From: Dubosiella newyorkensis
GTDB lineage: Bacteria > Bacillota_I > Bacilli_A > Erysipelotrichales > Erysipelotrichaceae
Direction: 5' to 3'
Assembly: GCF_001945605.1 (NCBI RefSeq)
Contig: NZ_MPKA01000058.1
Coordinates: 1-32,000, forward strand
Length of the DNA: 32,000 bases
The translations under genes and the position numbers were made by a program. Shown here piece after piece: positions 5,819-25,886 of the stretch (position 1 is its first letter; each line of letters opens with the position of its first letter). The notes beneath the pieces were generated by a model. It did not search any database, was not told the DNA's origin, and saw nothing but the letters and a program-made list of their open reading frames with translations.

Positions 5819-7285
5819 CTATTTATATCCTTCTAAATTGGAGTATCCCATCAAGTATTGATCGATCTCTTTTGCGCATTCGATCCCTTCGTGGATCGCC
5901 CAAACCACAAGAGATTGACCCCTTCTTGCATCTCCTGCCGCGAACAAAGGCAGCTCCTCATCCACTTGATAATGCAAAGGAAGCGTTTTGATCGTATTTC
6001 TTGGCGTCACTTCCAAATCAAAGCTTTCCTTTAAAGAATCTTCGATCCCGACAAAGCCTGCTGCGACTAAGAGCACATCACAAGGAAGGACTTGTTCGCT
6101 TCCTTCGATCTTTTCAGGACCATGAGGACCCATTTTGACATTGCAAATATGGACTTGGCAAATATGCCCATCCATCACATCGATCGATTCCACAGTTGTA
6201 TTGTAAAGTCTAGGATCGCTTCCTTGCACATACGCGACTTCTTCTTGTCCATAATCGGTCTTCAAGACATTAGGCCATTCAGGCCAAGGATTAGAATCTA
6301 GCCTCTCTTTAGGAGGTTCTGGCATCATTTCTAATTGGGTGATATTTGTCGCACCTAAACGAACAGCTGTTCCGCAACAGTCATTTCCCGTATCTCCACC
6401 ACCTACGATCACGATCGCTTTGTTTTGAAGATCACATAAAGGAAGCTGGAGCTGTAAGCTTTTTGTCACCTCACTCAAGAAATCGACCGCATAGTAAACG
6501 CCATCGACTTCATCGATCGCCTCGAGGATCGATCTTGGCTTTTTAGCGCCCGCGCATAAAGCGATCGCGTCAAATTCCTCGAGCAATTCAGAACAGCTGA
6601 CCGTTTTGCCAACCTCCGTATTGGTAAAGAATTCGATCCCTTCCTGCTTCATGAGCTGGATCCTTCGATTCACGATCATTTTTTCCAGCTTCATGTTGGG
6701 GATCCCGTACATGAGAAGACCTCCAGGCGTATCCTCTCGTTCATACACACGAACGATATGACCTCTTTGATTGAGCGTATGCGCAAGAGCAAGACCGCTC
6801 GGACCAGAACCGATGATGGCGACCTTTTTTGAAGAGCGCACAGTCGGGATCTTCGGTTTCATCAACCCCTCATCAAAAGCGGATTCAATAATAAATTTCT
6901 CATTATCGTGAATGCACACAGGAAGCCCCTCCAAGCCATTCAAGCAGGCTTTCTCGCACAGAGCAGGGCATACGCGACCAGTAAATTCAGGAAATGGATT
7001 GGTCTTCAATAATCGATTTAGAGCATAGGCGATATTATCTTGATAGATTTCCTCGTTCCATTCTGGAACGAGGTTGTGCAATGGACATCCTGTCACTCGA
7101 CCTTTGAGCTCGATCGCGGATTGGCAAAACGGAACGCCGCAATTCATGCATCTAGCCGCTTGTTCTTTTCGAACGGCCTCATCTTGATCTATATACAACT
7201 CTTCAAAATCATAGATGCGCTCTGAAACCGAGCGTTTCCCATTTTCTTTTCGTTCAAATTCTAAAAATCCCGTTGGTTTTCCCAT
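5819..7285 (-). CDS. gltD: Glutamate synthase (NADPH) small subunit
   Basis: 488 aa. Fe-S motifs CMNCGVPFCQ and CPALCEKAC. Dinucleotide fold VAIIGSGPSGLA. Sits 11 nt after the large subunit, with an AGGAGG RBS. Confidence 0.95.
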   Translation of the reverse strand: MGKPTGFLEFERKENGKRSVSERIYDFEELYIDQDEAVRKEQAARCMNCGVPFCQSAIELKGRVTGCPLHNLVPEWNEEIYQDNIAYALNRLLKTNPFPEFTGRVCPALCEKACLNGLEGLPVCIHDNEKFIIESAFDEGLMKPKIPTVRSSKKVAIIGSGPSGLALAHTLNQRGHIVRVYEREDTPGGLLMYGIPNMKLEKMIVNRRIQLMKQEGIEFFTNTEVGKTVSCSELLEEFDAIALCAGAKKPRSILEAIDEVDGVYYAVDFLSEVTKSLQLQLPLCDLQNKAIVIVGGGDTGNDCCGTAVRLGATNITQLEMMPEPPKERLDSNPWPEWPNVLKTDYGQEEVAYVQGSDPRLYNTTVESIDVMDGHICQVHICNVKMGPHGPEKIEGSEQVLPCDVLLVAAGFVGIEDSLKESFDLEVTPRNTIKTLPLHYQVDEELPLFAAGDARRGQSLVVWAIHEGIECAKEIDQYLMGYSNLEGYK

Positions 7286-7296
7286 TCTATGACCTC

Positions 7297-10200
7297 CTAT
7301 GCATGGATCGAGCGGAATGCCTTGAGTTCCGCCTCATCTTGATCGAAACCTTGATCGATCAGCGATTTGATCTCGTTTTTGATCTTTTTATAATCTCTTG
7401 GAATGATCTTTTTAAAATGCGGCAGCGCTTCATCAAAATGTGATAAAAGCTCTTTCGCTTTTTTTGAATGTGTCGCTTCGTAATGCTCCTTCAATAAGCT
7501 GTAGATCGCTTCTACATCTTGTTTATGTGAGACGTTTTCCATGTCGACCAGCTCATCGTTGAGGCGTTCATATAAATCGTGTTCAACATCATAAATGTAG
7601 GCGATTCCTCCCGACATACCGGCAGCCACATTTTTTCCAGTGCGGCCTAAGATCAAAACGGTTCCTCCAGTCATATATTCTAACGCGTGATCTCCACATC
7701 CTTCTACGACGGCTGTCGCACCAGAATTTCTTACACAGAATCTTTCGCCCGCTTTTCCTTGAATCAACGCTTTTCCTTCTGTTGCTCCATAAAGAGCCAC
7801 ATTGCCGATGATCACGTTTTGATCGGCCTCAAAAGGAGAAGATGGATCGACAGAAACGATGAGCTTTCCACCCGACAATCCTTTTCCAAAGTAGTCGTTG
7901 GCATCCCCGACAAGATCAAAAGTAACACCTTTAGGAAGGAAAGCGCCAAAGCTTTGGCCGCCCACACCTTCTAAATGCAACGTGAACGTGTCTTCCTCTA
8001 ACGTGTTTTGATATTTACGAGTGACCATGGAGCCAAATTCCGTACCAAAGGCGCGATCCAAAGAACTGATCTTCAAACGCTCCTGGTGAGGGATTGGATT
8101 GGAGAGCATGAATGGTTTGAAAGCTGGATAAACATCCACCATATCGAGCCGTTCATCCAATTTAAAATCAAAGAATGTTTTTTCGCCCGAAGACAAGTAG
8201 ACAGGCTTCTTGATCATTTCTTTTAACCGAGCGATATGCAAATTTTCCTCATCCTCTTCGCGGATCTGCAAGCATTCACTATGACCAACCATCTCATCGA
8301 GTGTCCTAAAGCCAAGCGAAGCCATGATCTCCCGAAGCTCTTGAGCGATAAATTCCATAAAGTGTACGATATATTCAGGCTTTCCTTTGAACCGTTTGCG
8401 CAATTCCTTATTTTGGGTCGCGATCCCGAATGGGCAAGTATCCAAATTACATACCCGCATCATCCGACATCCCATCGTAACAAGAGGAGCTGTTGCGAAA
8501 CCAAATTCTTCCGCTCCAAGAAGAGCGGCGATCGCCACGTCGCGACCTGTCATGAGCTTTCCATCTGTCTCCACGTACACACGATCACGCAAATTGTTTT
8601 CTACAAGCGCATGATGCGTTTCGATCACGCCAAGTTCCCAAGGAAGACCTGCATGATGGATCGAGCTTTGCGGAGCGGCCCCCGTTCCTCCATCGTGCCC
8701 CGAAATCAAGATGACTTGAGTGCCCGCTTTCGCCACGCCGCAAGCGATCGTTCCAACCCCCGATTCGGACACGAGCTTGACAGAAATACGCGCTTGATCG
8801 TTCGCGCATTTTAAATCATAGATCAGCTGCGCGAGATCTTCGATCGAATAAATATCGTGATGAGGAGGAGGAGAAATCAGTGTGACGCCAGGCGTCGAGC
8901 AGCGCGTTTTTGCGATCCAAGGATACACTTTATTTCCTGGTAGATGTCCTCCTTCGCCAGGTTTTGCGCCTTGCGCCATCTTGATTTGAATTTCTTTGGC
9001 AGAAACAAGGTATTCGCTCGTCACCCCAAAACGACCTGAAGCGACTTGTTTGATCGCGCTGTTTTTATTCGTGTATAGACGTTCCTTTTCTTCGCCGCCT
9101 TCTCCAGAATTCGATTTTCCGCCAATCGAATTCATCGCGATCGCCATGCATTCATGCGCTTCTTGAGAGATCGAGCCATACGACATCGCACCCGTCTTAA
9201 AACGTTTTACGATCGATTCGACACTTTCGACTTCTTCGATGTCGATCGCTTCTCTTTCATAAACAAAATCCATACAAGAACGAAGCGTATGCGGATGATG
9301 TTCTGCGTTGAGACGAGAAGAGTATTCCTTGAAAAGCGAATAGTCGTTTTCCCAACAAGATCTTTGAAGCAGAACGATCGATTTAGGATCGTAAAGATGA
9401 TCTTCTTTATCTGGTCCGCTTCTTAGCTTATGGAAGCCGATCGAATCGAGCGAGGCGTCCGTGCCTAAACCAAGTGGATCGAAGGCATGGTCGTGATGAT
9501 AGATGATATCGCGTTCCATTTCCTCTAATCCAACGCCACCAATGCGGGAAACCGTATTCGTGAAATATGTATCGATCACTTCTTTACCAATACCGATCGC
9601 TTCAAAGATCTGTGCCCCCTGATATGATTGAAGCGTAGAAATTCCCATTTTGGCTGCGATCTTTACGATTCCCATCAAGATCGCTTCATTGTAGTCTGCG
9701 ATCGCTTTCGATGGTTCTTTATCGAGTATATCTAGATCAATCATTTCCTCGATACATTCATGAGCTAAATATGGGTGGATGGCACTCGCTCCATAGCCTA
9801 ACAAGCAAGCGAAATCATGAACGCGCTTTGGTTCGCCGCTTTCGACGATCATCGAGATCGCTGTTTTCTTTTTCGTCTTGATCAAATGTTGTTCAAGAGC
9901 GGAAACCGCTAAAAGGGAAGGGATCGCCATGCGGCTTTCATCAACGCCGCGATCCGATAAGATCAAGATATTGGCGCCTTGCCGATATGCTCGATCCGCT
10001 TCTACGAATAAGTGCTCGATCGCATCCTTTAAAGGCATCCCACGATAGAAGAGAGTCGATAAGACATATGGTTTGAAGCCTTCCTTATCGAGATTTTTGA
10101 TCTTATCCATATCTTGACTATCTAAGATCGGATGCTCGATTTCAAGAACGCGACAGTTTTCTTTAACATCCTCTAACAAGTTTCCGTCGGAACCAATATA

Positions 10201-11769
10201 TACAGTTGTATCCGTCACGACTTCTTCACGTAAAGAATCGATCGGTGGATTGGTGACTTGTGCGAACAATTGCTTAAAATATTGGAATAGATTCGGATGA
10301 AGCTTGCTGAATGGCGCTAATGGAATATCGGTTCCCATGCTCGCGATCGGTTCTTTATGCATCTTGGCCATTGGCAAGATCTGCTCTTTCATATCTTCAT
10401 ACGTATATCCAAAATATTTATAAAGACGATCTCGTTGCTCCTGGGTATGGATCCGGGTTTTTTTGTCTGGCGCTGAAAGACTTTTTAAATGGAGAAGAGA
10501 TTGGTGGAGCCATTCTCCATAAGGATGCATTTTCGCATACTTTGCTTTGAGCGCTTCATCTTCGATCAAGCCAGCGCCTTTCGTATCGATCACCAACATC
10601 TTGCCAGGCTCTAATCGTGATTTTTCCACGATTTGATCGGCAGGAAGGTCTAAGACACCCACTTCGGAAGACAAGATCAAGGTGTTGTCTTTCGTTATAT
10701 AGTAACGCGCAGGACGGAGCCCATTTCGATCGAGCTGAGCGCCCACGATCTCGCCATCCGAAAAAAGGATCGCGGCAGGACCATCCCAAGGCTCCATCAT
10801 GGTCGCGTAATAATGATAGAAATCGTATTTGTCTTTCGACATATTTGTATGTTTATAGGGTTCAGGAACAAGGATCATGAGCGCTTTGACAAGATCCATA
10901 CCATTCATCATCAAAAATTCAAGCGTATTGTCCAGACGCGCGGAATCGGATCCAGTCACATCCATCACGGGAAGGATCTCTTGAAAATTGGATTCAATAA
11001 GCGAAGAATGCATGCTTTCTTCTCGCGCCATCATCCTGTTTTCATTGCCTTGGATCGTATTGATCTCGCCATTATGGGCGATCAAACGATTTGGATGGGC
11101 TCTTTTCCAGGAAGGTGTCGTATTGGTCGAAAAACGGGAATGGACGATCCCGATCGCGCTTTGATAGTTTGTATCTTGCAGGTCGTCATAAAAAGCACGC
11201 AACTGATCGACCAAGAACATGCCTTTGTAGACGATCGTTCGACTCGATAAAGAAGCCACATACGTATCTTTGGCGCACTTTTCGAATTCGCGGCGCACTA
11301 AATAGAGCTGACGGTCGAAATCGAGACCTTTTTCGATCGAATCAGGCCGTTCAATGAATCCTTGATAGATCAAGGGCATGCATTCTAAAGCCGCTTCGCC
11401 TAAGATCTCTGGATGGCACGGCACTTTACGCCAGCCTAAAAAGCGCAACCCTTTTTTCGCGACGATCGTTTCGAAGAGCTTCATCGATTGGGCGCTTTCT
11501 AGTGTGGAGTTTGGAAAAAAGAACATGCCCACACCATAATCGCCTTCTTCTTTTAAATCGAGGGGAAGTCGGGAAAAGAAGGAATGAGAGATTTGTAGCA
11601 AGATCCCGACACCATCGCCTACTTTACCGCTCGCATCTTTTCCAGCTCGATGTTCAAGCTTTTCTACGATCTGTAAAGATTGATCGACGATCGAATAACT
11701 TTTGATCCCATTCATTTGAACGACGGCGCCAATTCCGCAAGCATCGTGTTCGTGATTCAAATAATGCAT
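7297..11769 (-). CDS. gltB: Glutamate synthase large subunit
   Basis: 1490 aa. N-terminal Ntn amidotransferase CGIGAVV. FMN/3Fe-4S region (CNLDTCPFGIATQ). C-terminal GXGXG beta-helix domain. Confidence 0.97.
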   Translation of the reverse strand: MHYLNHEHDACGIGAVVQMNGIKSYSIVDQSLQIVEKLEHRAGKDASGKVGDGVGILLQISHSFFSRLPLDLKEEGDYGVGMFFFPNSTLESAQSMKLFETIVAKKGLRFLGWRKVPCHPEILGEAALECMPLIYQGFIERPDSIEKGLDFDRQLYLVRREFEKCAKDTYVASLSSRTIVYKGMFLVDQLRAFYDDLQDTNYQSAIGIVHSRFSTNTTPSWKRAHPNRLIAHNGEINTIQGNENRMMAREESMHSSLIESNFQEILPVMDVTGSDSARLDNTLEFLMMNGMDLVKALMILVPEPYKHTNMSKDKYDFYHYYATMMEPWDGPAAILFSDGEIVGAQLDRNGLRPARYYITKDNTLILSSEVGVLDLPADQIVEKSRLEPGKMLVIDTKGAGLIEDEALKAKYAKMHPYGEWLHQSLLHLKSLSAPDKKTRIHTQEQRDRLYKYFGYTYEDMKEQILPMAKMHKEPIASMGTDIPLAPFSKLHPNLFQYFKQLFAQVTNPPIDSLREEVVTDTTVYIGSDGNLLEDVKENCRVLEIEHPILDSQDMDKIKNLDKEGFKPYVLSTLFYRGMPLKDAIEHLFVEADRAYRQGANILILSDRGVDESRMAIPSLLAVSALEQHLIKTKKKTAISMIVESGEPKRVHDFACLLGYGASAIHPYLAHECIEEMIDLDILDKEPSKAIADYNEAILMGIVKIAAKMGISTLQSYQGAQIFEAIGIGKEVIDTYFTNTVSRIGGVGLEEMERDIIYHHDHAFDPLGLGTDASLDSIGFHKLRSGPDKEDHLYDPKSIVLLQRSCWENDYSLFKEYSSRLNAEHHPHTLRSCMDFVYEREAIDIEEVESVESIVKRFKTGAMSYGSISQEAHECMAIAMNSIGGKSNSGEGGEEKERLYTNKNSAIKQVASGRFGVTSEYLVSAKEIQIKMAQGAKPGEGGHLPGNKVYPWIAKTRCSTPGVTLISPPPHHDIYSIEDLAQLIYDLKCANDQARISVKLVSESGVGTIACGVAKAGTQVILISGHDGGTGAAPQSSIHHAGLPWELGVIETHHALVENNLRDRVYVETDGKLMTGRDVAIAALLGAEEFGFATAPLVTMGCRMMRVCNLDTCPFGIATQNKELRKRFKGKPEYIVHFMEFIAQELREIMASLGFRTLDEMVGHSECLQIREEDEENLHIARLKEMIKKPVYLSSGEKTFFDFKLDERLDMVDVYPAFKPFMLSNPIPHQERLKISSLDRAFGTEFGSMVTRKYQNTLEEDTFTLHLEGVGGQSFGAFLPKGVTFDLVGDANDYFGKGLSGGKLIVSVDPSSPFEADQNVIIGNVALYGATEGKALIQGKAGERFCVRNSGATAVVEGCGDHALEYMTGGTVLILGRTGKNVAAGMSGGIAYIYDVEHDLYERLNDELVDMENVSHKQDVEAIYSLLKEHYEATHSKKAKELLSHFDEALPHFKKIIPRDYKKIKNEIKSLIDQGFDQDEAELKAFRSIHA

Positions 11770-11780
11770 AGACTTCCTCC

Positions 11781-13364
11781 TTAAATTCCACTATCTCCAT
11801 AGTTCGATAAATAGCGAGCGCTCGGATCGCTCACTTGACAACCTTCCCAATTTTGATTTGGGAGCCAGAAATCTTTGACCATCTCGTCTTGGCCAGGATA
11901 GTATTTTTCAAAAAGCTCGCGATACAGCAGCGACTCCTTCGTGTATGGCGTTGCGTGCTTGTATTGCTTTCTTTTCTCTTCGTATTCTTCATCGCTGTAG
12001 AATGCTTCTGCGAAATGCTTGATCGAATCGGCCATAGAATGTCCGACGGCATCCGAGAACGCGGCTTTTTCACGCATCAAGATCGAATACGGCAACAAGT
12101 CGTCGCCTTCAAACGCGTGACGAAGTAAATATTTTCCTTTATTGTACGTATTGATTTTTTTTGCCGGATCGATATGCATGACATAATCGACAAAGTCGAG
12201 ATCCCCAAAAGGAACACGCGCTTCCATAGAATGGGAAGCGATGCATCGATCCGCCCGCAAAACATCATACATGTGGATCTCGCGCATCCGTTTTTCCGCT
12301 TCTTTTTGGAACGCTTGCGCGCTAGGAGCGAAATCCGTATATTTGTATCCAAACATTTCATCGGAAATCTCCCCGGTCAATAAAACACGGACATCGCTCA
12401 TTTCGTGGATCTTTTTGCAGATAAGATACATTCCAATGCTCGCGCGAATCGTCGTGATGTCATAGGTCCCTAACGCTTGAATGACTTCTTCAAGGGAAGA
12501 GAGGACATCGTGTTCGTCGATGATGATCTCATGATGATTGCTTTGTATATATTCAGCAACTTCTTTGGCGTATTTTAAGTCGATCGCATCCTGATCCATT
12601 CCGATCGCGTAGGTTTCGATCGGCTTGCTGCTTTTGGATTGAGCGATCGCGCAAACAAGCGATGAATCCAGCCCGCCAGAAAGAAGATAGCCGATAGGCG
12701 CGTCGGAATCTAACCGTTTTTCCACACCAGCGATCAACTTGTCGTGAATGTTTTTCGCGATCGTTTCCAGATCGTCATCGAGATACGAATCGACCTGGCT
12801 GACATCCTTATAACAAATGAATTCCCCGTCTTTATAATAATGACCTGGAGGGAAGGGCAAGATCTTTTCGCAAAGAGCCACTAGGTTTTTAGGCTCGGAA
12901 GCAAACACGATCGAGCCGTTTTGCGTATAGCCATAATAGAGTGGCCGAATGCCGATCGGATCGCGAGCCGCGATCAACTCGTTGCTCTTTCCATCATATA
13001 GGACTAACGCATATTCCGCGTCGAGCATCGAGAACATCTTGCATCCGTATTCTTGATAGAGCGGCAGCAAGATCTCGCAATCCGATTCGGAACCGAACGT
13101 ATATCCAAGCTGGATCAGCTTTTCTTTGAGCGGCTTGAAGCCATAGATCTCACCATTGCATACGATTTTAGAGCGATTCAAGCTGAACGGCTGCATTCCT
13201 TCGGGGTGAAGACCCATGATCGCTAATCGTTGGAACGCGATCCAGCCATGATCCGTTTTTTCGATGCGCATCGCATCGGGCCCGCGGGATGTCGTAGGCA
13301 TGAACGCTTGTTCAATTTGTTTTTGAGTGATTGTTTGATCGGTTGTCACGAAAATCGTACACAT
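11781..13364 (-). CDS. asnB: Asparagine synthase (glutamine-hydrolysing)
   Basis: 527 aa. Cys2 nucleophile (MCTIF), PP-loop SGGLDSS. AGGAGG RBS at 13372-13377. Confidence 0.93.
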   Translation of the reverse strand: MCTIFVTTDQTITQKQIEQAFMPTTSRGPDAMRIEKTDHGWIAFQRLAIMGLHPEGMQPFSLNRSKIVCNGEIYGFKPLKEKLIQLGYTFGSESDCEILLPLYQEYGCKMFSMLDAEYALVLYDGKSNELIAARDPIGIRPLYYGYTQNGSIVFASEPKNLVALCEKILPFPPGHYYKDGEFICYKDVSQVDSYLDDDLETIAKNIHDKLIAGVEKRLDSDAPIGYLLSGGLDSSLVCAIAQSKSSKPIETYAIGMDQDAIDLKYAKEVAEYIQSNHHEIIIDEHDVLSSLEEVIQALGTYDITTIRASIGMYLICKKIHEMSDVRVLLTGEISDEMFGYKYTDFAPSAQAFQKEAEKRMREIHMYDVLRADRCIASHSMEARVPFGDLDFVDYVMHIDPAKKINTYNKGKYLLRHAFEGDDLLPYSILMREKAAFSDAVGHSMADSIKHFAEAFYSDEEYEEKRKQYKHATPYTKESLLYRELFEKYYPGQDEMVKDFWLPNQNWEGCQVSDPSARYLSNYGDSGI

Positions 13365-13377
13365 AATTATACCTCCT

Positions 13378-13408
13378 GAAAAATTGGACCGACAGGATCC
13401 TGTCGGTC
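13378..13408 (-). terminator. Hairpin plus U-tract between glnN and asnB (intra-operon terminator or attenuator)
   Basis: Perfect palindrome gaccgacaggatcctgtcggtc (13387-13408). On the minus strand it is followed by CAAUUUUUC, which abuts the asnB RBS. Confidence 0.6.
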
Positions 13409-13416
13409 TTTAATTG

Positions 13417-15510
13417 TTAGATGATCCCAAAGAGGAGTTTTCCATACGTTGGGAATGGCCAATATTCACTGCCTGTGAGCATTTCAAGTTTATCGCATGG
13501 CTTTCTTAGAGCATCCATGGCTGGGATGATACGATCACGGACATAGGCAGCGGCAAGTTCAAAGTTATCGATCGCATGCAGCTTATCGAGATCGCTTTGC
13601 AGGGTAAGGAGCGCTTCATTTGCTTGTTCAAGCTCATTGGATATGGCTTCTAGCGTGCTCGCTTCATAACCAACTGGAAGCGATTGCGATACGCTTGCCT
13701 TCAACAAGATCGTGTCGGCTAATTCCTTTTCAAAGCGGATGATCGAAGGCAAGATTTGTTTTTTCGCCATATCGACCATCGTCAGCGCTTCGATATTCAA
13801 GATCTTTGTATATTCTTCCATCATGATCTCGTAGCGTGAAAGGATCTCGTCTTTGCTTAAGACGCCTTGGCGTTCAAAGAGTTCGATATTTTCTGGCAAG
13901 ATGCTGTAAGGAAGCGCGTCAACGGTTGTTTTTAGATTGAGAAGGCCACGCGCTTTTGCTTCCTCGATCCAAGAATCATCGTACCCATTTCCATTAAAGA
14001 TGATTCGTTTATGATTTCTAAGTGTTTCTTGGATCAGTTGATGCAATGTGGTATCGAAATCTTCGGCGTTTTCTAAAATATCCGCATATTCTTGAAGCGC
14101 ATCGGCGATGACGGTGTTCAGCATGATATTTGGCTGTGCAACAGACAGAGCGGAACCAGGCATTCTGAATTCAAATTTATTGCCTGTAAACGCGAATGGG
14201 GAAGTTCGGTTACGGTCGGTCGTGTCTTTTTGGAAATTTGGCAACACGCTCGCGCCGATCCTCATATATTCGTGCTCGCCTTCAATATATGGTGTATCGT
14301 TTTCAATCGATTCTAAGATCGAAGTCAGCTCATCACCTAAGAAGATCGAAATGATCGCAGGAGGTGCTTCGTTGGCACCTAAACGGTGGTCGTTTCCAGC
14401 CGTTGCGACCGAAAGACGAAGCAGGTCTTGGTGTTCGTCGACAGCTTTGATTATAGCTGCTAGCATGAGCAAGAATTGCGCGTTTTCGCTTGGTGTTTCT
14501 CCTGGTTCCAGTAAGTTGATCCCTGTATCTGTGGAAATGGACCAGTTGTTGTGCTTGCCGCTTCCGTTGATGCCTTCAAATGGCTTTTCGTGAAGCAAAG
14601 CGACAAGACCGTGTTTTTTAGCGACTCTCTGGATGATTTCCATTGTTAGTTGGTTATGATCGACTGCGATGTTCGTTGTTGAAAAGACAGGAGCGAGTTC
14701 GTGTTGTGCTGGAGCGACTTCGTTGTGTTCTGTCTTGGCGCTGATCCCAAGTTTCCATAGCTCTTCGTTCAGCTCGTTCATGAATTTTTGCACGCGGGAT
14801 TTGATCGTTCCAAAGTAATGGTCTTCCATTTCTTGGTTTTTTGGAGCCATCGCGCCAAAGAGCGTTCGACCTGTATAGATCAAGTCTTTGCGTTGTTCAT
14901 AATACTCTTTATCGACCAAGAAATATTCTTGTTCTGGACCAAGGGTCGTCTTGATGCTTTTGACATCGTCGTGCCCAAAAAGCTTTACGATGCGAAGCGC
15001 TTGCTTGTTGATCGCTTCCATCGATCGAAGTAGCGGCGTCTTTTTGTCGAGAGCGAAACCTGTATAGGAACAGAAGGCTGTAGGAATGCAAAGAACGCCA
15101 TCTTTGATAAAGGCATAGCTTGTTGGATCCCAAGCTGTATATCCTCTAGCTTCGAATGTGGCTCTCAGTCCGCCATTCGGGAAGCTAGACGCGTCTGGTT
15201 CACCTTTGATGAGCTCTTTTCCAGAAAAAGACATGATGACCGTTCCATCGTTTCGTGGTTCGATGAAGCTATCGTGCTTTTCAGCGGTCACACCTGTCAT
15301 TGGCTGGAACCAGTGGGTAAAGTGGGTCGCGCCCTTTTCGATTGCCCAAACTTTCATCGCGTGAGCGACTGCGTTGGCGATCTTGATATTGAGCGGTTTT
15401 CCATCTTGGATCGTCTTTTCTAATTCTTTGAATGTTTCTTTCGGTAAGCGTTCTTTCATCGTCTTTTCGTTAAAGACGTTCGTTCCGTACATTTCTGAAA
15501 CTTTATCCAT
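13417..15510 (-). CDS. glnN: Glutamine synthetase type III (copy 1)
   Basis: 697 aa, the length typical of GS-III. Motifs [69 protein letters not shown]. Confidence 0.93.
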
Positions 15511-15533
15511 AGTGATTCTCCTTCTTATTCAAC

Positions 15534-15592
15534 AAAAAAAAGCAAAGGCCTAGTATCCACCCTTGAAAAAGGGATGTTTACGACGCCTTTGC
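15534..15592 (-). terminator. Leader terminator (attenuator) between the glnN promoter and the glnN start codon
   Basis: Minus-strand RNA has GCAAAGGC...(43 nt)...GCCUUUGC followed by U8. It ends 23 nt before the glnN ATG, inside the roughly 90-nt leader. Confidence 0.6.
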
Positions 15593-15595
15593 CGT
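15580..15595 (-). promoter_or_regulatory. Candidate ANTAR-type hexaloop hairpin overlapping the 5' arm of the leader terminator
   Basis: Minus-strand ACGGC-AAAGGC-GUCGU forms a 5-bp stem (one G-U) with a hexaloop carrying A at position 1 and G at position 4. It uses the GCAAAGGC bases the terminator needs. I could not find a convincing second hexaloop hairpin. Confidence 0.3.
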
Positions 15596-15607: not shown

Positions 15608-15635
15608 ATTATAACGAGATATATATTCTTGTCAA
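15608..15635 (-). promoter_or_regulatory. Sigma-A-type promoter for glnN
   Basis: On the minus strand: TTGACA (15635-15630), 16-nt spacer, TATAAT (15613-15608). Confidence 0.55.
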
Positions 15636-15636
15636 T

Positions 15637-15651
15637 AATTTTCTGAAAAAA
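15637..15651. promoter_or_regulatory. CodY-box-like element
   Basis: AATTTTCTGAAAAAA matches the CodY consensus AATTTTCWGAAAATT at 13 of 15 positions. It lies immediately upstream of the glnN -35 element. Confidence 0.3.
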
Positions 15652-15652
15652 G

Positions 15653-15669
15653 ATGAAAAATATTTTCAT
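15653..15669. promoter_or_regulatory. Perfect 7-3-7 palindrome, candidate operator
   Basis: ATGAAAA-ATA-TTTTCAT sits between the divergent promoters, 3 nt upstream of the -35 of the GS-like gene. Confidence 0.3.
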
Positions 15670-15672
15670 TGT

Positions 15673-15701
15673 TTGAAAGAAGATCCGTCATTGCGTATAA
15701 T
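15673..15701 (+). promoter_or_regulatory. Sigma-A-type promoter for the GS-like/ANTAR/ybaK operon
   Basis: TTGAAA (15673-15678), 17-nt spacer, TATAAT (15696-15701). RBS aggag at 15712-15716. Confidence 0.55.
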
Positions 15702-15723: not shown

Positions 15724-16902
15724 ATGGATACGATAGATGAATTATTGAGTTTTCTCGAAGAAGAGGATGTCCGCTTTATTCGGTTGACCTTTTATGATAT
15801 GTATGGCGTTCAAAAGAATATCTCGATCTTGCCAGATCTGCTTCCTCGCGCATTGCAGGAGGGGATCGCGATCGATACGTTTGCGATCCCTTCGCTGAGT
15901 GCTCGATCGGGAAATACGTTATATTTAAAGCCAGATCCAAAAACGATGAGCGTATTGCCATGGCGTTCTAATGAAGGCAATGTGATTTCTTTGATCTGCT
16001 CGATCTATGAAGCGGATGGCTCGCCATGTGCATACGATGGAAGAAGAATGCTTCAAGAAACGCTGAAGGAGGCGGTTCAGAGCGACTTGTTTTTGAACTT
16101 GTCGACTCAATTCGAGTTTTATTTGTTTTTGCAGGATGAAATGGGAAACGATACCCATCGTCCTCTCGATTATGCTTCTTTTATGGACGTCGCTCCTGAA
16201 GATAAAGGGGAAAATATACGCCGGGATATTTGTTTGACGCTCTCTGAAATGGGCTTGCAGCCTCAGGCAAGCTATCATCAGGCGGGTTTCGGGCAAAATG
16301 AGATCGACTTTCACAGTTCCTCTCCGCTTCAAGCCGCGGATGAGGCGATGATCTTTAAATGGGTCGTCAAGATCTTGGCCAACGCGAATGGATTGTTCGC
16401 TGATTTTTCGCCCAAGCCTTTAGAAAATGGTCCGGGAAACGGAATGCATATCAAATTCTCGTTTTCGAAGCATGAAAACAGGAAAAAGATCGAATCGTTC
16501 ATCGCGGGGATCCTACAGCATATTCGCGCAATGACTTTGTTTTTAAATCCGATCAACGCCTCTTATGCGCGTTTTGGCAAAGAGAAAGCGCCTGACCATA
16601 TCACATGGTCTTACGAGTTTCCATATGAGCTCATTCATATCGATCCGAAAAACAAACATATCTTTGAGCTCCGCTCTCCGGATCCGCAATGCAATCCATA
16701 TTTATGCTTTTCATTATTGATCAAGGCCGGTATGGATGGGATCGCTCAAGATCTCGTCTTGGAAAGGCCGCTTGGGGCGACTTGTGATCTTGGGACGATC
16801 CAACGGCTTCCTAAAAACAAGGAAGAGGCGTATGCTTGCGCGATCAACGATCAATGGCTCCTTTCCATCGTGCCTCGCGAATTGATCGAGCTGTATCGAT
16901 AA
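15724..16902 (+). CDS. Glutamine synthetase type I-like protein, short (392 aa), with degenerate catalytic motifs
   Basis: GS beta-grasp plus catalytic-domain similarity (VRFIRLTFYDMYG, GNGMHIKFS, ELRSPDPQCNPYL). I moved the start to the ATG at 15724, because the track start at 15574 would overlap both promoters. Canonical EPEFF reads TQFEFY, HHEVA reads YHQAG, and NRSxxIRIP reads FPYELIHID. Confidence 0.85.
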   Translation: MDTIDELLSFLEEEDVRFIRLTFYDMYGVQKNISILPDLLPRALQEGIAIDTFAIPSLSARSGNTLYLKPDPKTMSVLPWRSNEGNVISLICSIYEADGSPCAYDGRRMLQETLKEAVQSDLFLNLSTQFEFYLFLQDEMGNDTHRPLDYASFMDVAPEDKGENIRRDICLTLSEMGLQPQASYHQAGFGQNEIDFHSSSPLQAADEAMIFKWVVKILANANGLFADFSPKPLENGPGNGMHIKFSFSKHENRKKIESFIAGILQHIRAMTLFLNPINASYARFGKEKAPDHITWSYEFPYELIHIDPKNKHIFELRSPDPQCNPYLCFSLLIKAGMDGIAQDLVLERPLGATCDLGTIQRLPKNKEEAYACAINDQWLLSIVPRELIELYR

Positions 16903-16907
16903 TCGGT

Positions 16908-17489
16908 ATGAAAGAAAAGAAAAAAGTCATGATCATCGGAAAGATCAAAGAGAAGGCTCCGTATAAAGAGCTTTTTCCCTCTTCGATCTATGCGCCATTG
17001 ACGATCTATGAAAGTGTTGTCGAAGCTAAACACAAGCTAGCTTCTGAGCATTTCGATCTCATTTGGATCCAGGGATTGCTTCAAGTACAGCAAGCTAAAG
17101 AGATCGCGATGGTCTACAATACGATGGTCCTTTTGTTTGTTAAAGCGACGATCTATGATCAAGTTGCCTATCAAATGCGGGATGCACGCGTTTTCGTATT
17201 CTCGTTCCCGATTTCTCGATCGACAATGAGCCAAGTCGTCTCGATGGTGGAACAATTCAGCGAAAAGACAAAAACGTTAGAACGAAAGCTTTTCCTTGCA
17301 CAGAAAAAGTTGAAAGATATCAAGATCATCGATCGCTGCAAGATGGAATTGATGCACTATTTTCATTGGAACGAAGATAAGGCACATCATTATATGGAAA
17401 AATGCGCAATGGATCAAGGCGTTTCAAAGTTGCAGATCGCGCATACGATCCTAGCGAAACTCGAATTAAAAAAGGAAGCGAATGCATGA
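16908..17489 (+). CDS. ANTAR-domain RNA-binding antiterminator with a pseudo-receiver N-terminal domain
   Basis: 193 aa from the ATG at 16908, 6 nt after the GS-like stop. Coiled-coil linker, then ANTAR helices IIDRCKMELMHYFHWNEDKAHHYMEKCAMDQGVSKLQIAHTIL. The receiver-like N-terminus lacks the acidic pair (VMIIGK). FDLIWIQG replaces the usual DLxxxD phospho-acceptor context. Confidence 0.85.
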   Translation: MKEKKKVMIIGKIKEKAPYKELFPSSIYAPLTIYESVVEAKHKLASEHFDLIWIQGLLQVQQAKEIAMVYNTMVLLFVKATIYDQVAYQMRDARVFVFSFPISRSTMSQVVSMVEQFSEKTKTLERKLFLAQKKLKDIKIIDRCKMELMHYFHWNEDKAHHYMEKCAMDQGVSKLQIAHTILAKLELKKEANA

Positions 17490-17974
17490 AAAAACAAAAA
17501 ACGAACGCGATGCGAATACTAGAATCCAACAAGATCCCTTATATAGAGCATGAATACGAGCATCGTAAAGACGATCCAGTCGATGGGATCCATGTTGCGC
17601 AAACGATCGGAGAACCTGTAGAACGTGTCTATAAAACATTAGTATGTACGGGAAGCGATAAAGACAATTATGTTTTCATGATCCCGGTCGATCAAGAGCT
17701 GGATCTAAAAAAATGCGCCAAGGCAGCACATCTCAAACATATCGAAATGCTCCCTCTTAAAGATCTTACGAAGACCACCGGATATATTCGTGGAGGATGT
17801 TCGCCTTTAGGAATGAAGAAAGTCTTCAAGACATGGATCCAAGAGGACGCGATGCTTTATGACACGATCTTTTTTTCAGGAGGAAAGATCGGTCTACAAA
17901 TCGAGGCAAACGCCAACGATCTATCGAAGGTGATCGATATTGAATTTGCCGATCTGATCAAAAGCGCAAACTAG
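17486..17974 (+). CDS. ybaK: Cys-tRNA(Pro)/Cys-tRNA(Cys) deacylase, YbaK family
   Basis: 162 aa from the ATG at 17486, which forms an ATGA overlap with the ANTAR stop. N-terminus MKKQKTNAMRILESNKIPY and GYIRGGCSPLG are typical of YbaK. Confidence 0.9.
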   Translation: MKKQKTNAMRILESNKIPYIEHEYEHRKDDPVDGIHVAQTIGEPVERVYKTLVCTGSDKDNYVFMIPVDQELDLKKCAKAAHLKHIEMLPLKDLTKTTGYIRGGCSPLGMKKVFKTWIQEDAMLYDTIFFSGGKIGLQIEANANDLSKVIDIEFADLIKSAN

Positions 17975-17995
17975 GGACCACTTGGTCCTTTTTTT
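17975..17995 (+). terminator. Rho-independent terminator after ybaK
   Basis: GGACCA-CU-UGGUCC followed by U7. Confidence 0.75.
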
Positions 17996-21036: not shown

Positions 21037-21525
21037 CTAGTCGTCTTTTTCAGAACCGATCGCATCTTGTGTTGCTGCGAGCATTGGTCGGATATCAAGA
21101 TCTACGACATCTTTCAACTCTGGATTGGTTGGTTTTCCGTTTTCGTCAACTGTAACGGCATCAACACCGTTTTCCTTGATGAAGTTTTCTACATATTCGA
21201 CTTGATCAAGCCAATCTGTATCGATGCTCATTTGTGTGTCTTTGTCTGGTCCATAGAGCTGTTCGAGTTCAGTGATCGCGTTTCCATCTTGATCGACGAA
21301 TTCCATCATCACATCCGAAAGCTGATCGCCATCTTTAACGATCGTAGCGTTGACAGTTCCTCCATTATCATAGACAGCAGTGCCTTTAAGCTCTTTCTTT
21401 TCCGTTGTTGTTTCCGTTGTTTTGTCCTCTTTGGCACTATCGTCTTTTGGGGTTTCTGTGCTTGAATTTGCGCAGCCCGCCAATAAAAGTAAGGAGAGAG
21501 CGGTTAAAGTTAATTTTTTGTTCAT
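21037..21525 (-). CDS. Lipoprotein, paralog B of a tandem pair (possible divergent FMN-binding-like domain)
   Basis: 162 aa with lipobox LLAGC. Shares W..QV.Y.E.FI..NGVDAV..D..G with the upstream paralog. RBS aggagg with 8-nt spacing. Confidence 0.75.
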   Translation of the reverse strand: MNKKLTLTALSLLLLAGCANSSTETPKDDSAKEDKTTETTTEKKELKGTAVYDNGGTVNATIVKDGDQLSDVMMEFVDQDGNAITELEQLYGPDKDTQMSIDTDWLDQVEYVENFIKENGVDAVTVDENGKPTNPELKDVVDLDIRPMLAATQDAIGSEKDD

Positions 21526-21589
21526 GGTGTAAGCCTCCTATAACCCTAATTCTAAACGGAGTTGAACGAATTTCAATGTTGATGCTCAT

Positions 21590-21614
21590 AAAAAAAAGGC
21601 TGATTTCTCAGCCT
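21590..21614 (-). terminator. Rho-independent terminator between the two lipoprotein genes
   Basis: Minus-strand GGCUGAGAAAUCAGCC followed by U8. Confidence 0.75.
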
Positions 21615-21628
21615 CGTTCATTGTAAAT

Positions 21629-22093
21629 TTATTTCGCGTCTGCTTCTTTGACAGCTTCCATGATGTCAGTCAAATTGATCGTGCATCCAGATTTTAGATC
21701 TTCATCTTCTGCATAACCATCTTTGTCCAATTTAACTGCGTCAACACCGTTGTCGATGATGAATTGTTCAAGATATTTTACTTGTTCATACCATTCTTTA
21801 CCGATGCTAGAAGCTTCTTTCATTTTATAGTCATCGCCAAGTTCTTTTTTAGAAGAACCGTCTTTGATCTGGTCGATCGTGATCGAAGTGATCTTTCCGT
21901 TTTCTTTTTCGATATCCGCTTTTGTAACATTACCATCTGCATCTGTTACTTCTGCAGAGGATTGTGCTCCACCAGCTTCATCTGTAGTTGTGTTTACAGA
22001 TTCATCTGTTGTTTCTTCTTTTTTTGTATCGTTACTTGCGCATCCTGCCAACAAGAACAAAGACAACGTGCCTAAAATGAGTTTCTTATTCAT
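21629..22093 (-). CDS. Lipoprotein, paralog A (possible FMN-binding-like domain)
   Basis: Start moved to the second ATG (22093), which gives 8-nt spacing from AGGAGG. Lipobox LLAGC. C-terminal DLKSGCTINLTDIMEAVKEA resembles the D-x-x-S-G-A-T end of FMN_bind domains. Confidence 0.75.
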   Translation of the reverse strand: MNKKLILGTLSLFLLAGCASNDTKKEETTDESVNTTTDEAGGAQSSAEVTDADGNVTKADIEKENGKITSITIDQIKDGSSKKELGDDYKMKEASSIGKEWYEQVKYLEQFIIDNGVDAVKLDKDGYAEDEDLKSGCTINLTDIMEAVKEADAK

Positions 22094-22152
22094 TCTCATT
22101 ACCTCCTACGCACCTATTGTACTATAAAAATAGATGAATACAAATATTTAAC

Positions 22153-24237
22153 TCAAAAAGACTTAAAAAGCATATCATTATAATCCGGAAGTGGCCAATC
22201 CGATTTGCTTACATTCTTTTCGATCAGATCCGTCAGCCTACGGATCGTCTCCATGAGCGGAAGCAGTTCATCGCAAGCGAAGCGAGCCATGATTTTTTCA
22301 TTTTCTAGTGGGGTCTCGATCAATCGTTCAAGTGTTCCGACGTGTTCGGAAACGATCTCAAGCGGTTCGTTGATCTGTTTCAGGATCTTTTCTTCCATAG
22401 GCGCTTGGATGCCGCATGCCTTTTTTGTTTGGATGATTTGAGCAAGTTTCGCCTCGTAATCAAAGATCGCCGGCAATATTTCTTTTCGAAGCATGTAAAC
22501 CATGGTCTTGGCTTCGATGATGATCACTTGATAATAGTTCAACAGCAAGATATTCTCTCTTGCATAAAGCTCTTGCGGAGAATAGACATTATGTTTTTCA
22601 AAAAGAGAAAGATTTTTTGGATCTGTATAGTGAGGCAGAGCATCCGCTGTGCTTTTTAATTCAAGAAGGCCGCGCCGCTTAGCTTCCTCTTTCCAAGAAT
22701 CGCTGTATCCGTTTCCAGAAAAACAAATCCGATTGTGTTCTTTTAAAGTCCGTCGAATGATCTGGATCAGCGCTTCCGTTCTTTTGTGTTCTGGATAGCA
22801 CTCCAGCTCGGTTGAAAACTGATCGAATTCTTCCGCTACGATGGTATTCAAGATCGTATTCGGGCACGATATGTTCAAATTCGAGCCAAGCATCCGAAAC
22901 TCGAACTTATTTCCCGTAAAAGCGAATGGAGAGGTGCGGTTGCGGTCCGTCGAGTCTTTAGCTAAGCTAGGGAGCACTTGAAGACCGAGCTCCAATTTCT
23001 TATCGATCTGATCCACATATTCGCTGCCTTCTTCGATCGCCTTCAAGATCGCTGTGAGCTCTTCGCCTAAGTAGATCGAAATGATCGCTGGCGGAGCTTC
23101 ATTGCCTCCTAAGCGGTGATCGTTGCCAGCGCTCGCCACAGAAATACGAAGAAGGTCTTGATATTCGTCGACCGCTTTGATGATCGCAGTAAGGACCGTT
23201 AAAAAGCGGATGTTATCTTGTGGCGAATCGCCAGGTTCTAGCATGTTTTCACCCTCATCGGTCGAGAACGACCAGTTGTTGTGCTTGCCGCTTCCGTTGA
23301 TCCCATCAAAAGGTTTTTCATGAAGCAGGCAAACAAAACCATGATGCTTCGCACATTTTTGAAGCACTTCCATCGTTAGCTGGTTTTGGTCGTTGGCTAA
23401 ATTCGTAGACGTATAGACAGGAGCGATCTCGAATTGACAAGGAGCGACTTCCTTATGTTCGGTTTTAGCGAATACGCCTAGCTTCCATAATTCCTCATCG
23501 ACTTCTTCCATGAACGCTTTGACTCTTTCATCAATATTGCCGAAATAATGGTCGTCGAGTTCTTGTCCTTTAACTGGCGCGCAGCCAAAGAGCGTACGTC
23601 CTGTCACCATTAGATCGATCCGTTGCTTATACATCTTTTCATCGATCAGGAAATACTCTTGTTCTGGGCCGACTGTGATGTTGATCTTCTTGACGTTATA
23701 GCCCATTAAATCGAATAAGCGGATCGCGGAATCATTGAGGGCCTCGATCGAGCGGAGAAGAGGTGTTTTTTTATCCAACGCGCTTCCATCGTAAGAACAG
23801 AATAAAGTCGGGATATACAATGTTTTATCTTTGACAAACGCGTAGCTCGTCGGATCCCATGCCGTATATCCTCTCGCTTCAAATGTCGCGCGAAGACCCC
23901 CGGAAGGGAAGGAGGAAGCGTCCGGTTCGCCTTTGATCAGTTCTTTTCCGCGAAAATCAGAAAGGATCGAATTTTCTCCTGTCGGATTGATGAAGGCGTC
24001 ATGTTTTTCAGCGGTGATCCCTGTCATTGGCTGAAACCAATGGGTATAATGGGTGGCGCCTTTTTCCATCGCCCAGTCTTTCATCGCGTTGGCGACCACA
24101 TCGGCGATCTCGGCAGGAAGAGGCTCTCCATATTCCATGACTTGATTAAGCTTTTTAAAGACAGAATTTGGTAAATACTTCTGCATTTCGTGTTTCGAGA
24201 AGACGTTGCACGCAAAATATTCATCCACAGTTTTCAT
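22153..24237 (-). CDS. glnN: Glutamine synthetase type III (copy 2)
   Basis: Shares the GS-III motifs of copy 1, with roughly 60% identity by eye. I chose the ATG at 24237 over the track's TTG at 24243. Lies 23 nt after the pyrG stop, with no terminator or promoter between them. Confidence 0.92.
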   Translation of the reverse strand: MKTVDEYFACNVFSKHEMQKYLPNSVFKKLNQVMEYGEPLPAEIADVVANAMKDWAMEKGATHYTHWFQPMTGITAEKHDAFINPTGENSILSDFRGKELIKGEPDASSFPSGGLRATFEARGYTAWDPTSYAFVKDKTLYIPTLFCSYDGSALDKKTPLLRSIEALNDSAIRLFDLMGYNVKKINITVGPEQEYFLIDEKMYKQRIDLMVTGRTLFGCAPVKGQELDDHYFGNIDERVKAFMEEVDEELWKLGVFAKTEHKEVAPCQFEIAPVYTSTNLANDQNQLTMEVLQKCAKHHGFVCLLHEKPFDGINGSGKHNNWSFSTDEGENMLEPGDSPQDNIRFLTVLTAIIKAVDEYQDLLRISVASAGNDHRLGGNEAPPAIISIYLGEELTAILKAIEEGSEYVDQIDKKLELGLQVLPSLAKDSTDRNRTSPFAFTGNKFEFRMLGSNLNISCPNTILNTIVAEEFDQFSTELECYPEHKRTEALIQIIRRTLKEHNRICFSGNGYSDSWKEEAKRRGLLELKSTADALPHYTDPKNLSLFEKHNVYSPQELYARENILLLNYYQVIIIEAKTMVYMLRKEILPAIFDYEAKLAQIIQTKKACGIQAPMEEKILKQINEPLEIVSEHVGTLERLIETPLENEKIMARFACDELLPLMETIRRLTDLIEKNVSKSDWPLPDYNDMLFKSF

Positions 24238-24260
24238 TGCCAAAATTTCCTTTCTTCTTT

Positions 24261-25886
24261 TTATTGATCGGCGTTTTCTTTTTCTTTTTTATATTGAATG
24301 CTGTTTTCGATCAAACCGACGAATAATGGGTGAGCGCGGTTTGGTCGCGATTTGAATTCAGGATGGTATTGCACACCTACATAAAATGGATGATCTTTAT
24401 ATTCGATCGCTTCTACGAGCTGCTTGTCTGGAGAATTACCGGTGATCATCATTCCATTTTGCTCAAATTCAGCGCGGTATAAATTGTTGAATTCATAACG
24501 ATGACGATGTCTTTCTTCGATCAAGTCTTTCTCGTAGTATTTGGAAAGCATAGAATTTGGATGGATCGCGCACGGATAGGCGCCTAAGCGCATCGTTCCG
24601 CCTTTTTTGATCGTATCGCTTTGGTCTTCCATAAAATCGATGATCGTATGCGTGCTTTTTGGATCGAATTCATAACTGTTCGCATCTGCATAGCCAAGCG
24701 CATCCCTGGCAAAGGCGATCGCCGCGATCTGCATCCCTAAACAAATCCCTAAATAAGGGATCTGATGGTGTTTGGCGTAGTTGGCGACCTTGATCATTCC
24801 TTCGACGCCGCGGCCTCCAAAGCCGCCAGGCAAGATAATGCCATCGACTCCTTCAAATACGACATCGAGATCTTGGTCTTCCAATGTTTCAGAATCGACC
24901 CAGCAAATATCGACTTTGGTCTCGAATTGGAATCCAGCGTGATAGAGCGCTTCCGAAACGGAGAGATAGGCATCGTGAAGTTGCACATATTTTCCCACTA
25001 ATGCGATCGTGACGCTTTCTTTCGAGTTGTGGATATGCTCGACCATGTTTTTCCAATTCTCAAGATCAGGTTTACGGACTTCTAGATCGAGTTTTTCGCA
25101 AACGATATCCGCCATTCTTTGTTCTTCGAGCATCAAAGGAACTTCGTATAATGAATCGAGAGTCGTGTTTTCGATCACACAGTCTTTTTCAACGTTACAA
25201 AATAAAGAGATCTTATCGAGAACAGATTGCGGGATCTTCTCATCGCAGCGCGCGATGATCATATCTGGATTGATCCCATGCGATTGCAGCTCTTTGACAG
25301 AATGCTGGGTTGGTTTTGATTTGTATTCCTTGCTTCCTGAAATATAAGGGATATATGTCACATGCAAAAACAAACAATTGTTTCGGCCGACTTCAAGGGG
25401 AACTTGTCGGATCGATTCTAGAAAAGGCAAGGATTCCATATCGCCAGTCGTTCCTCCGATCTCGGTGATGACGACATCCGCTTGCGCGTGTTTTCCAGCT
25501 TGGATGACGAAATTACGGATCTCGTTGGTCACATGCGGAATGACTTGAACTGTTTCACCTAAATATTTGCCTTCACGTTCTTTATTGATTACATTCCAAT
25601 AGACTTTTCCAGTCGTTAAGTTGGAATATGTATGCAGATTTTCATCGATAAACCGTTCATAGTGGCCTAAATCAAGATCGGCTTCCAATCCATCGTCGGT
25701 CACGAACACTTCACCATGTTGATAAGGAGACATCGTGCCAGGATCGACATTGATATATGGATCGAGCTTTTGCGAAGTCACCTTATAGCCTCTTGCTTTT
25801 AAAAGGCGGCCTAAAGAAGCGGCGCTGATCCCTTTTCCAAGACCAGAGACGACGCCTCCAGTTACGAAGATGTATTTTGTATTCAT
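24261..25886 (-). CDS. pyrG: CTP synthase
   Basis: 541 aa. N-terminus [16 protein letters not shown]. GATase domain GICLGMQ and HRHRYEFN. Confidence 0.97.

Follow-up and report, generated by a model that had tools for sequence, protein, structure and literature searches.

Can a glutamine synthetase (GS) that has lost part of its active site serve as the sensor of a transcription antiterminator? This question is raised by a pair of genes in Dubosiella newyorkensis, which lies within a stretch of 32,000 nucleotides (nt) of contig NZ_MPKA01000058.1 (positions 1 to 32,000 of the forward strand, hereafter the window). The first gene (15724-16902, plus strand) encodes a GS-like protein of 392 amino acids (aa), predicted to be a non-catalytic sensor on the basis of Pfam and NCBIfam profiles, residue alignments and an AlphaFold2 (AF2) model. 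An ANTAR antiterminator gene (16908-17489, plus strand; 193 aa, assigned by Pfam, profile alignment and AF2) follows directly downstream, as a preliminary description of the locus had reported, although the spacer measured from the GS-like stop codon is 5 nt rather than 6. Together with ybaK, these genes are divergent from glnN-asnB-gltB-gltD on the minus strand. We put the probability at roughly 60% that a GS-derived sensor, non-catalytic in this lineage and probably reading 2-oxoglutarate (2-OG), gates a NitR-type antiterminator.

The GS-like protein matches both Pfam GS domains, Gln-synt_N (51 bits) and Gln-synt_C (200 bits), and its score of 227 bits is below the GlnA equivalog cut-off of 429 bits (TIGR00653). 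It is 100% identical to a database entry annotated "glutamine synthetase family protein," and its AF2 model, with a predicted template modeling (TM) score of 0.90, superposes on GSI-alpha structures with a TM score of 0.92. Catalytic positions were read from residue-level alignments to solved GSI-alpha structures and are given in Salmonella numbering. GPEPEFF has become STQFEFY (E129Q, with E131 kept), EASHHEV has become QASYHQA (E207Q, H210Y, and E212Q), NGSGMH has become PGNGMH (N264P and S266N), and SxxNRSxxIRIP has become SYEFPYELIHID (R339P and R344H, the nucleotide-phosphate arginines). The preliminary description, which saw type I GS (GS-I) motifs kept with altered canonical positions, is thus borne out for each of these four motifs, and the alignment adds a Glu327 flap that is one residue shorter, with a Lys at the Glu position. 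Four of the six metal ligands (E129, E131, E212, E220, H269, and E357) are kept, whereas E129 and E212 have become Gln; the retained residues are E131, E220, H269, R321, E357, and R359. In GS enzymes, metal ligands and phosphate-binding arginines are needed for ATP-dependent catalysis. Because two of the former and two of the latter are missing, ATP-dependent catalysis by this protein is very unlikely, as far as can be judged from its residues. Catalysis could be supplied by the two type III GS (GSIII) genes, which are indeed present in the window at 13417-15510 and 22153-24243.

If catalysis has been lost, the gene might be a functionless, decaying remnant of glnA. It does evolve faster than the GSIII gene: amino acid identity to locus L001 of Firmicutes bacterium M10-2 is 65% for the GS-like protein versus 86% for GSIII, and nonsynonymous divergence (dN) from L001 is 0.30 for the GS-like gene, compared with 0.36 (ANTAR gene) and 0.11 (GSIII). 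Synonymous divergence (dS) from L001 is saturated, so that only dN and the integrity of the open reading frames (ORF) could be used. The GS-like ORFs are intact and equal in length (390-404 aa) in six diverged lineages, and many non-catalytic residues are invariant. Because dN is 0.30 with saturated dS and the ORFs are intact in all six lineages, the gene appears to be maintained under constraint and is no pseudogene, which makes the chance that it is a mere remnant next to negligible.

Whether the ANTAR gene is a regular companion was assessed in relatives of the GS-like gene (at least 579) from a scan of one genome per species, of which 80 loci were kept for analysis. Nearly all 80 loci have an ORF of ∼195 aa 5-60 nt downstream of the GS-like gene, and 76 of 77 such downstream ORFs are ANTAR genes. 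These loci are in Clostridia and Erysipelotrichia, and the hosts include Lachnospiraceae, Oscillospiraceae, Ruminococcus, Christensenellales, and Erysipelotrichaceae. No alternative partner gene is conserved beside the ANTAR gene in the 77 loci. The co-occurrence that the preliminary description had pointed to is thus general, and in terms of gene order the GS-like and ANTAR genes are a conserved two-gene unit, adjacency being what these comparisons show. The same description regarded a pair of this kind as not biochemically described, which holds for one part only. A GS-I gene followed by an ANTAR gene is an arrangement already named glnA-nitR in C. saccharobutylicum NCP262, where NitR has been proposed as an antiterminator of GS/glutamate synthase (GOGAT) transcripts (PMC6316151), and the C. 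thermocellum Clo1313_2031/2030 pair lies beside GOGAT and glnN (PMC4676874, PMC9888227). In contrast, a full-text literature search found no description of a GS-ANTAR complex or of a GS pseudoenzyme sensor, and no entry for a GS-ANTAR complex was found in the PDB.

The ANTAR partner has features expected of a protein that is controlled other than by phosphorylation. Its ANTAR domain (PF03861) scores 43.4 bits versus a cut-off of 27.3. Its AF2 model, with a predicted local distance difference test score of 89, consists of five beta/alpha receiver units, a long coiled-coil helix of 49 residues (104-152), and a three-helix ANTAR domain, and the closest folds are EutV bound to RNA (6ww6, TM 0.67), Rv1626, and AmiR (TM 0.61). 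In a profile alignment to Rv1626 and EutV, the acidic pocket corresponds to G11-K12 and the phospho-Asp to Q55, which confirms the earlier proposal of a receiver-like domain that lacks the pocket and has Gln for the phospho-acceptor. The Pfam Response_reg domain was not detected in the window protein and was found in 49 of 77 relatives. Among the 77 partners, the phospho-Asp position is occupied by Asn in 61, Gln in seven, and Asp in one; by these residues, the ANTAR pseudo-receiver is incapable of phosphorylation. At the former phospho-acceptor site, the pseudo-receivers of the 77 loci have a strongly conserved (V/I)IN(T/A)PLxD(E/D)xG loop, with a Lys or Arg at the T87 position, and the Dubosiella clade is without this signature (IWIQGLLQVQQA). 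If the loop serves for docking, then the lineage without GS catalysis is also the one in which the docking surface was remodelled.

How far loss of catalysis extends was determined across the family. Losses of metal ligands or arginines are the exception in the 80 genome loci. Replacement of N264 by Pro, Ser, or Ala, S266N, S53A, and the Glu327 flap change are family-wide, and PGNGMH and the flap are thus not specific to Dubosiella. Specific to the Dubosiella clade (the window, L001, and P0002-P0005) are E129Q, E212Q, and the absence or substitution of R339 and R344, whereas P0007, P0068, and P0020 are intermediates with changes at E207/H210/E212 only. In a set of 81 representatives (50%-identity clusters) with the one-residue flap deletion and a length of at least 380 aa, three or more of 10 core catalytic residues were scored as lost in 61. 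The label "pseudoenzyme," given to the window protein in the preliminary description, is hence appropriate for particular lineages, including Dubosiella, and not for most family members, because these keep their catalytic residues. Two giant proteins in the library of representative sequences, P0127 (4424 aa) and P0179 (2757 aa), contain 11 and six GS-like stretches, respectively, of ∼27-28% identity, which may reflect either tandem GS repeats within a single polypeptide or faulty assembly.

Gene context does not follow this gradient. The ANTAR gene comes next downstream in five of five degenerate members with sufficient contig (P0134, P0138, P0144, P0157, and P0170), whose neighbors are glnN/amtB-glnK, GOGAT, pyrG, asnB, or carAB, and it is also found beside the intact 439-aa P0136 and the canonical 445-aa GS P0197. 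The contigs of canonical P0213 and degenerate P0159 are too short for context, and the ORF downstream of P0137 is cut at the contig end. Because degenerate, intact, and canonical members all have an ANTAR neighbor, the ANTAR link, as seen in gene order, spans working enzymes through dead ones. Judging from the alignments, catalytic residues have been lost many times by the GS-like partner, and catalysis is dispensable across the family. One could argue instead that the protein is still an enzyme, either a weak GS or another gamma-glutamyl ligase, that adjacency reflects a shared nitrogen regulon, and that the ANTAR protein is controlled otherwise. Most relatives do keep all metal ligands and arginines, P0197 has its ANTAR neighbor, and the C. 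saccharobutylicum GlnA is an active GS. However, the window protein is without two metal ligands and both phosphate-binding arginines, the pairing is kept by heavily degenerate members, and the ANTAR receiver is unphosphorylatable, with no other conserved candidate for an adjacent partner. We therefore regard a surviving enzymatic role as quite unlikely.

Which ligand, then, might a GS-like sensor read? The M. mazei GS, which is the top PDB match of the family profile, offers a precedent. In M. mazei GlnA1, 2-OG is bound between subunits via F24, R26, and R87 and the neighboring R172', R173', and S189', and triggers dodecamer assembly with a large conformational change (PMC11957540). Equivalent residues are used by the M. 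thermolithotrophicus GS (MtGS), whereas Bacillus-type GS has a blocking Glu at position 34 and no Arg88 (PMC10799026). In an ungapped alignment with a constant offset, the six M. mazei residues correspond to F18, R20, R81, R166, R167, and S183 of the window protein. None of them varies within the Dubosiella clade, and each occurs in 79-80 of the 80 loci. MtGS position 34 is Ser or Ala in the family and Ser (S34) in the window, rather than the blocking Glu, and in P. polymyxa GS, Glu and Val occupy the two positions that discriminate (position 34 and R81). Among 60 degenerate representatives, residues of the 2-OG site are kept in 82-100% versus 25-77% for catalytic residues, and they rank 6, 14, 17, 18, 32, and 78 in conservation of 392 columns. 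Because the 2-OG site outlasts the active site in degenerate members, the ligand is probably 2-OG, the classical signal of nitrogen limitation, rather than Gln, Glu, or ATP. This replaces the earlier proposal, which had named the latter three: the best-conserved ligand site is the allosteric 2-OG site.

That proposal deserves to be weighed in its general form. What is left of the active site would bind glutamine, glutamate, or a nucleotide as the signal, in the manner of feedback-inhibited B. subtilis GS acting on TnrA/GlnR, and the 2-OG site would be kept for assembly only. The closest folds of the GS-like model include GS-GlnR and GS-TnrA complexes, E131, E220, H269, R321, E357, and R359 are kept in the window protein, and E131 and R321, which contact the backbone of the substrate amino acid, outlast the other catalytic residues, being lost in 18 and 15 of the 81 representatives versus 45-50 for E129, H269, and R339. 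On the other hand, N264, S53, and the E327 flap are altered family-wide, and degenerate members conserve the active site much less well than the 2-OG site. The equivalent of Arg62, which mediates glutamine feedback, is absent (Ala in the window and Asp in the family consensus), and B. subtilis-type glutamine feedback was rejected on this ground. Sensing at the active site is, in our judgment, fairly unlikely.

The target of the ANTAR protein was sought in the leader of glnN. A candidate ANTAR-binding hairpin, ACGGC-AAAGGC-GUCGU, is located at 15580-15595 (minus strand), supported by a covariance model and stem covariation, and A1 and G4, required for recognition by ANTAR proteins (PMC3369931), are present in its hexaloop. 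It overlaps an intrinsic terminator (15533-15593, minus strand) of a design that recurs in relatives, with a minimum free energy of -29.2 kcal/mol and a z-score of -3.65. The 5' arm of the terminator, GGCAAAGGC (15593-15585), overlaps stem and loop of the AAAGGC hairpin, and its 3' arm, GCCUUUGCC (15549-15541), is succeeded by a U8 tract (15540-15533). Hairpin and terminator are mutually exclusive. A simple pattern identified ∼90 hairpin-terminator elements in the 80 loci, and the window contains exactly one. In 85 homologous leaders, the stem is paired in 92.7% of cells versus 72% in shuffles and 38-53% in slid controls, and pair types GC/AU/CG and AU/UA alternate, GC, AU, and CG doing so at positions that the search pattern leaves unconstrained. 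A covariance model built without window or L001 sequences ranked the glnN leader as the top match in the window (21.2 bits, E 3e-4), and a strict dual-hairpin scan found it as the sole intergenic match there. The second-best covariance-model match (21732-21759, 14.3 bits) was rejected, as it is within a lipoprotein coding sequence, and so were matches to a loose hexaloop pattern elsewhere in the window, all of which are in coding regions. Rfam returned no match at gathering thresholds in the window, with only chance-level hits in the intergenic region.

Genes located 3' of the motif encode GSIII (30 cases), the GOGAT large subunit (19), the GS-like protein (15), amidotransferases (seven), glutamate dehydrogenase (GDH, four), and, in single cases, pyrG and carA. 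By comparison of these leaders, the AAAGGC hairpin-terminator is a candidate ANTAR RNA target upstream of nitrogen-assimilation genes. Since glnN is both the commonest neighbor and the commonest target of the leader motif, it could be that the GS-like protein directly regulates GSIII, as an inhibitory or scaffolding subunit and not via the ANTAR protein. However, GSI and GSIII assemble differently, and it would be left unexplained why the gene is invariably coupled in an operon with that of a pseudo-receiver ANTAR protein, which makes direct regulation of GSIII very improbable. The idea in the preliminary description that the pair controls the divergent glnN-asnB-gltBD unit gains comparative evidence from the ANTAR-type hairpin and terminator in the glnN leader, for a unit that is itself plausible. 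Some glnN leaders in other genomes have tandem double AAAGGC hairpin-terminator units (L032 911-982, L061 672-738, L062 2301-2365, and L069 5788-5838, minus strand), which may substitute for the second hairpin of the classical dual-hairpin target.

We propose the following mechanism for a sensor/antiterminator pair. When free, the unphosphorylatable ANTAR protein would bind the AAAGGC hairpin with which the glnN leader begins, which would block formation of the overlapping terminator and allow transcription of glnN, and probably of asnB-gltBD. If the pair works like AmiC-AmiR and NasS-NasT, the ANTAR protein is expected to be sequestered by the GS-like protein and to be freed when the latter binds its ligand. 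The GS-like protein would thus keep its partner inactive when nitrogen is plentiful and free it when nitrogen is scarce, the signal most likely being 2-OG at the inter-subunit allosteric site, with catalysis left to the two type III glutamine synthetases. Release by 2-OG fits, because nitrogen-assimilation genes must rise when 2-OG is high. Protein-protein binding, the ligand, and the sign of regulation are the parts of this model that we infer.

Several points weigh against it. Contact between the GS-like and ANTAR proteins is predicted, their pairing being seen as gene adjacency. The catalytic set is complete in most family members, which may be real enzymes, and co-location could then be a simple matter of co-regulation. 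The counts of degenerate members depend on automated alignment of divergent metagenomic sequences. Bacterial GS enzymes that do not respond to 2-OG likewise conserve R166, R167, and S183, which leaves position 34 and R81 as the only discriminating positions, and residues of the 2-OG site could be conserved for oligomer assembly alone. No second hexaloop is conserved across 71 leaders, in which there is one conserved hairpin only, whereas EutV needs two. A possible second hexaloop hairpin in the glnN leader (15556-15567, minus strand; UUC-AAGGGU-GGA) is uncertain and unconserved in relatives, and we therefore do not claim a dual motif. Finally, the predicted sign of regulation leans on Rydzak 2017, in which nitrogen genes reportedly rose despite high glutamine, an outcome in the same direction as release by 2-OG.

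The remaining features of the locus concern the two divergent gene groups. A start of the GS-like gene at 15724 was accepted because the homologues have the same start, and a 442-aa ORF from 15574 was discarded as an artefact. A promoter-like site (15673-15701, plus strand; TTGAAA-17-TATAAT) precedes the GS-like/ANTAR/ybaK unit, the leader of which is only ∼15-20 nt long and, in Dubosiella, has no attenuator or AAAGGC element. The third gene, ybaK (17486-17974, plus strand), encodes a Cys-tRNA(Pro) deacylase and is probably co-transcribed with the ANTAR gene, because the stop codon of the latter and the ybaK start codon overlap (ATGA). Behind ybaK is a terminator-like site (17973-17990). The same overlap occurs in L001 (7757-8242), so that ybaK seems to be a conserved third gene of the operon. 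On the minus strand, glnN (13417-15510), the predicted regulated target, has a promoter-like site at 15608-15635 (TTGACA-16-TATAAT) that matches the consensus at 12/12 positions. It is followed by asnB (11781-13364), gltB (7297-11769), and gltD (5819-7285), all of which are probably co-transcribed with glnN. The gap between glnN and asnB is 52 nt and has no promoter-like site, which makes a glnN-asnB-gltBD unit plausible from the layout. This gap contains a GC-rich hairpin of 9-10 bp (13387-13408, minus strand) with a weak U tract, directly followed by the asnB ribosome-binding site. The hairpin could be a partial terminator or a stabilizer, and may set the ratio of glnN to asnB-gltBD.

Additional elements were noted between the divergent promoters and elsewhere in the window. 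A CodY-box-like sequence, AATTTTCTGAAAAAA (15637-15651, plus strand), has 13/15 matches to AATTTTCWGAAAATT and abuts the glnN -35 element. It is the single such match in the window, for a chance expectation of 0.58, and a similar ATTTTCTGAAAAATT is found at the equivalent place in L001 (∼5933-5947), where the rest of the spacer has diverged. This site could add a further layer of control, at the DNA level, to the divergent promoters. Just upstream of the -35 element of the GS-like operon is a perfect inverted repeat of 7 bp (ATGAAAA-ATA-TTTTCAT, 15653-15669), which could be an operator. The second glnN (22153-24243, minus strand) lies directly downstream of pyrG in a block (22153-25886, minus strand) that has its own promoter-like site (25938-25910) but lacks an AAAGGC leader. 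In other genomes, pyrG is often the gene after ANTAR, sometimes with an AAAGGC motif of its own (L081 5832-5859); as seen in these gene orders, the link between pyrG and GS recurs across genomes and its wiring differs. Two adjoining small lipoprotein-like ORFs come after the second glnN (21037-22099, minus strand), and a 444-aa ORF downstream of gltD (4455-5789, minus strand) matched no Pfam or NCBIfam family.

Beyond this locus, we tentatively entertain a broader possibility, to which we give less credence than to the model for Dubosiella. The GS-derived family, which includes many pseudoenzymes, could be a cytoplasmic 2-OG receptor of Clostridia and Erysipelotrichia, in which assembly or conformational change driven by 2-OG would free the ANTAR protein and lead to read-through before glnN, gltB, gdh, asnB, and pyrG. 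If true, the pair would be the master nitrogen switch of these gut Firmicutes, where others use NtrBC, GlnR/TnrA, or PII-based control, and the family would offer a natural series of an enzyme turning into a dedicated sensor, a clear case of the passage to a pseudoenzyme with intermediates still alive. The model is testable and its parts are named: a GS-like sensor, a probable ligand site of six residues, an ANTAR effector, an AAAGGC hairpin-terminator operator, and a glnN/gltB/gdh/asnB/pyrG regulon. A further point for which the model may account is that nitrogen assimilation reportedly rose, instead of falling, when the C. thermocellum GS was deleted. The title of a study cited in two papers (PMC9888227, PMC5887222) states that deletion of this type I GS, the gene of which lies beside an ANTAR gene, "deregulates nitrogen metabolism," and nitrogen sensing in Clostridia is "not fully understood" according to a review (PMC6316151).

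Comparison with known systems places the Dubosiella pair among several of them. As in glnA-nitR, a GS-I gene directly precedes an ANTAR gene near GOGAT and glnN genes. However, GlnA is treated there as an enzyme, whereas the Dubosiella GS-like protein has lost catalytic residues, and the attenuator in Dubosiella precedes glnN, not the GS-like gene. AmiC-AmiR of Pseudomonas aeruginosa and NasS-NasT of Paracoccus likewise have a pseudo-receiver ANTAR gene beside a partner gene and a hairpin-terminator leader as target. AmiC and NasS are ligand-binding partners that sequester the ANTAR protein, a relationship predicted in Dubosiella from gene adjacency, and they have a periplasmic-binding-protein fold, whereas the Dubosiella partner has the GS fold, which forms dodecamers in GS proper. 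B. subtilis GS, which acts on TnrA and GlnR, is similar in that a GSI-alpha protein is a nitrogen sensor and a regulator is controlled by protein contact, as proposed here. It differs in being a working enzyme with glutamine feedback (Arg62) and DNA-binding MerR-type partners, in contrast to Dubosiella, where there is no Arg62 and the partner is predicted to bind RNA. With M. mazei GlnA1 and M. thermolithotrophicus GS, the GS-like protein shares six conserved 2-OG-binding residues, but those proteins are active enzymes, with GlnK1 and sP26 as partners and no ANTAR link described. Finally, EutV of the Enterococcus faecalis EutV-EutW system is the closest fold for the ANTAR protein and recognizes RNA hexaloops with A1 and G4, yet it is a phosphorylated response regulator that uses two hairpins, unlike the Dubosiella protein, which has no phospho-Asp and a target with one conserved hairpin. 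Taken together, these comparisons indicate that the Dubosiella system is a variation both on the AmiC-AmiR-type theme of a sensor and a pseudo-receiver ANTAR protein, and on the known glnA-nitR module.

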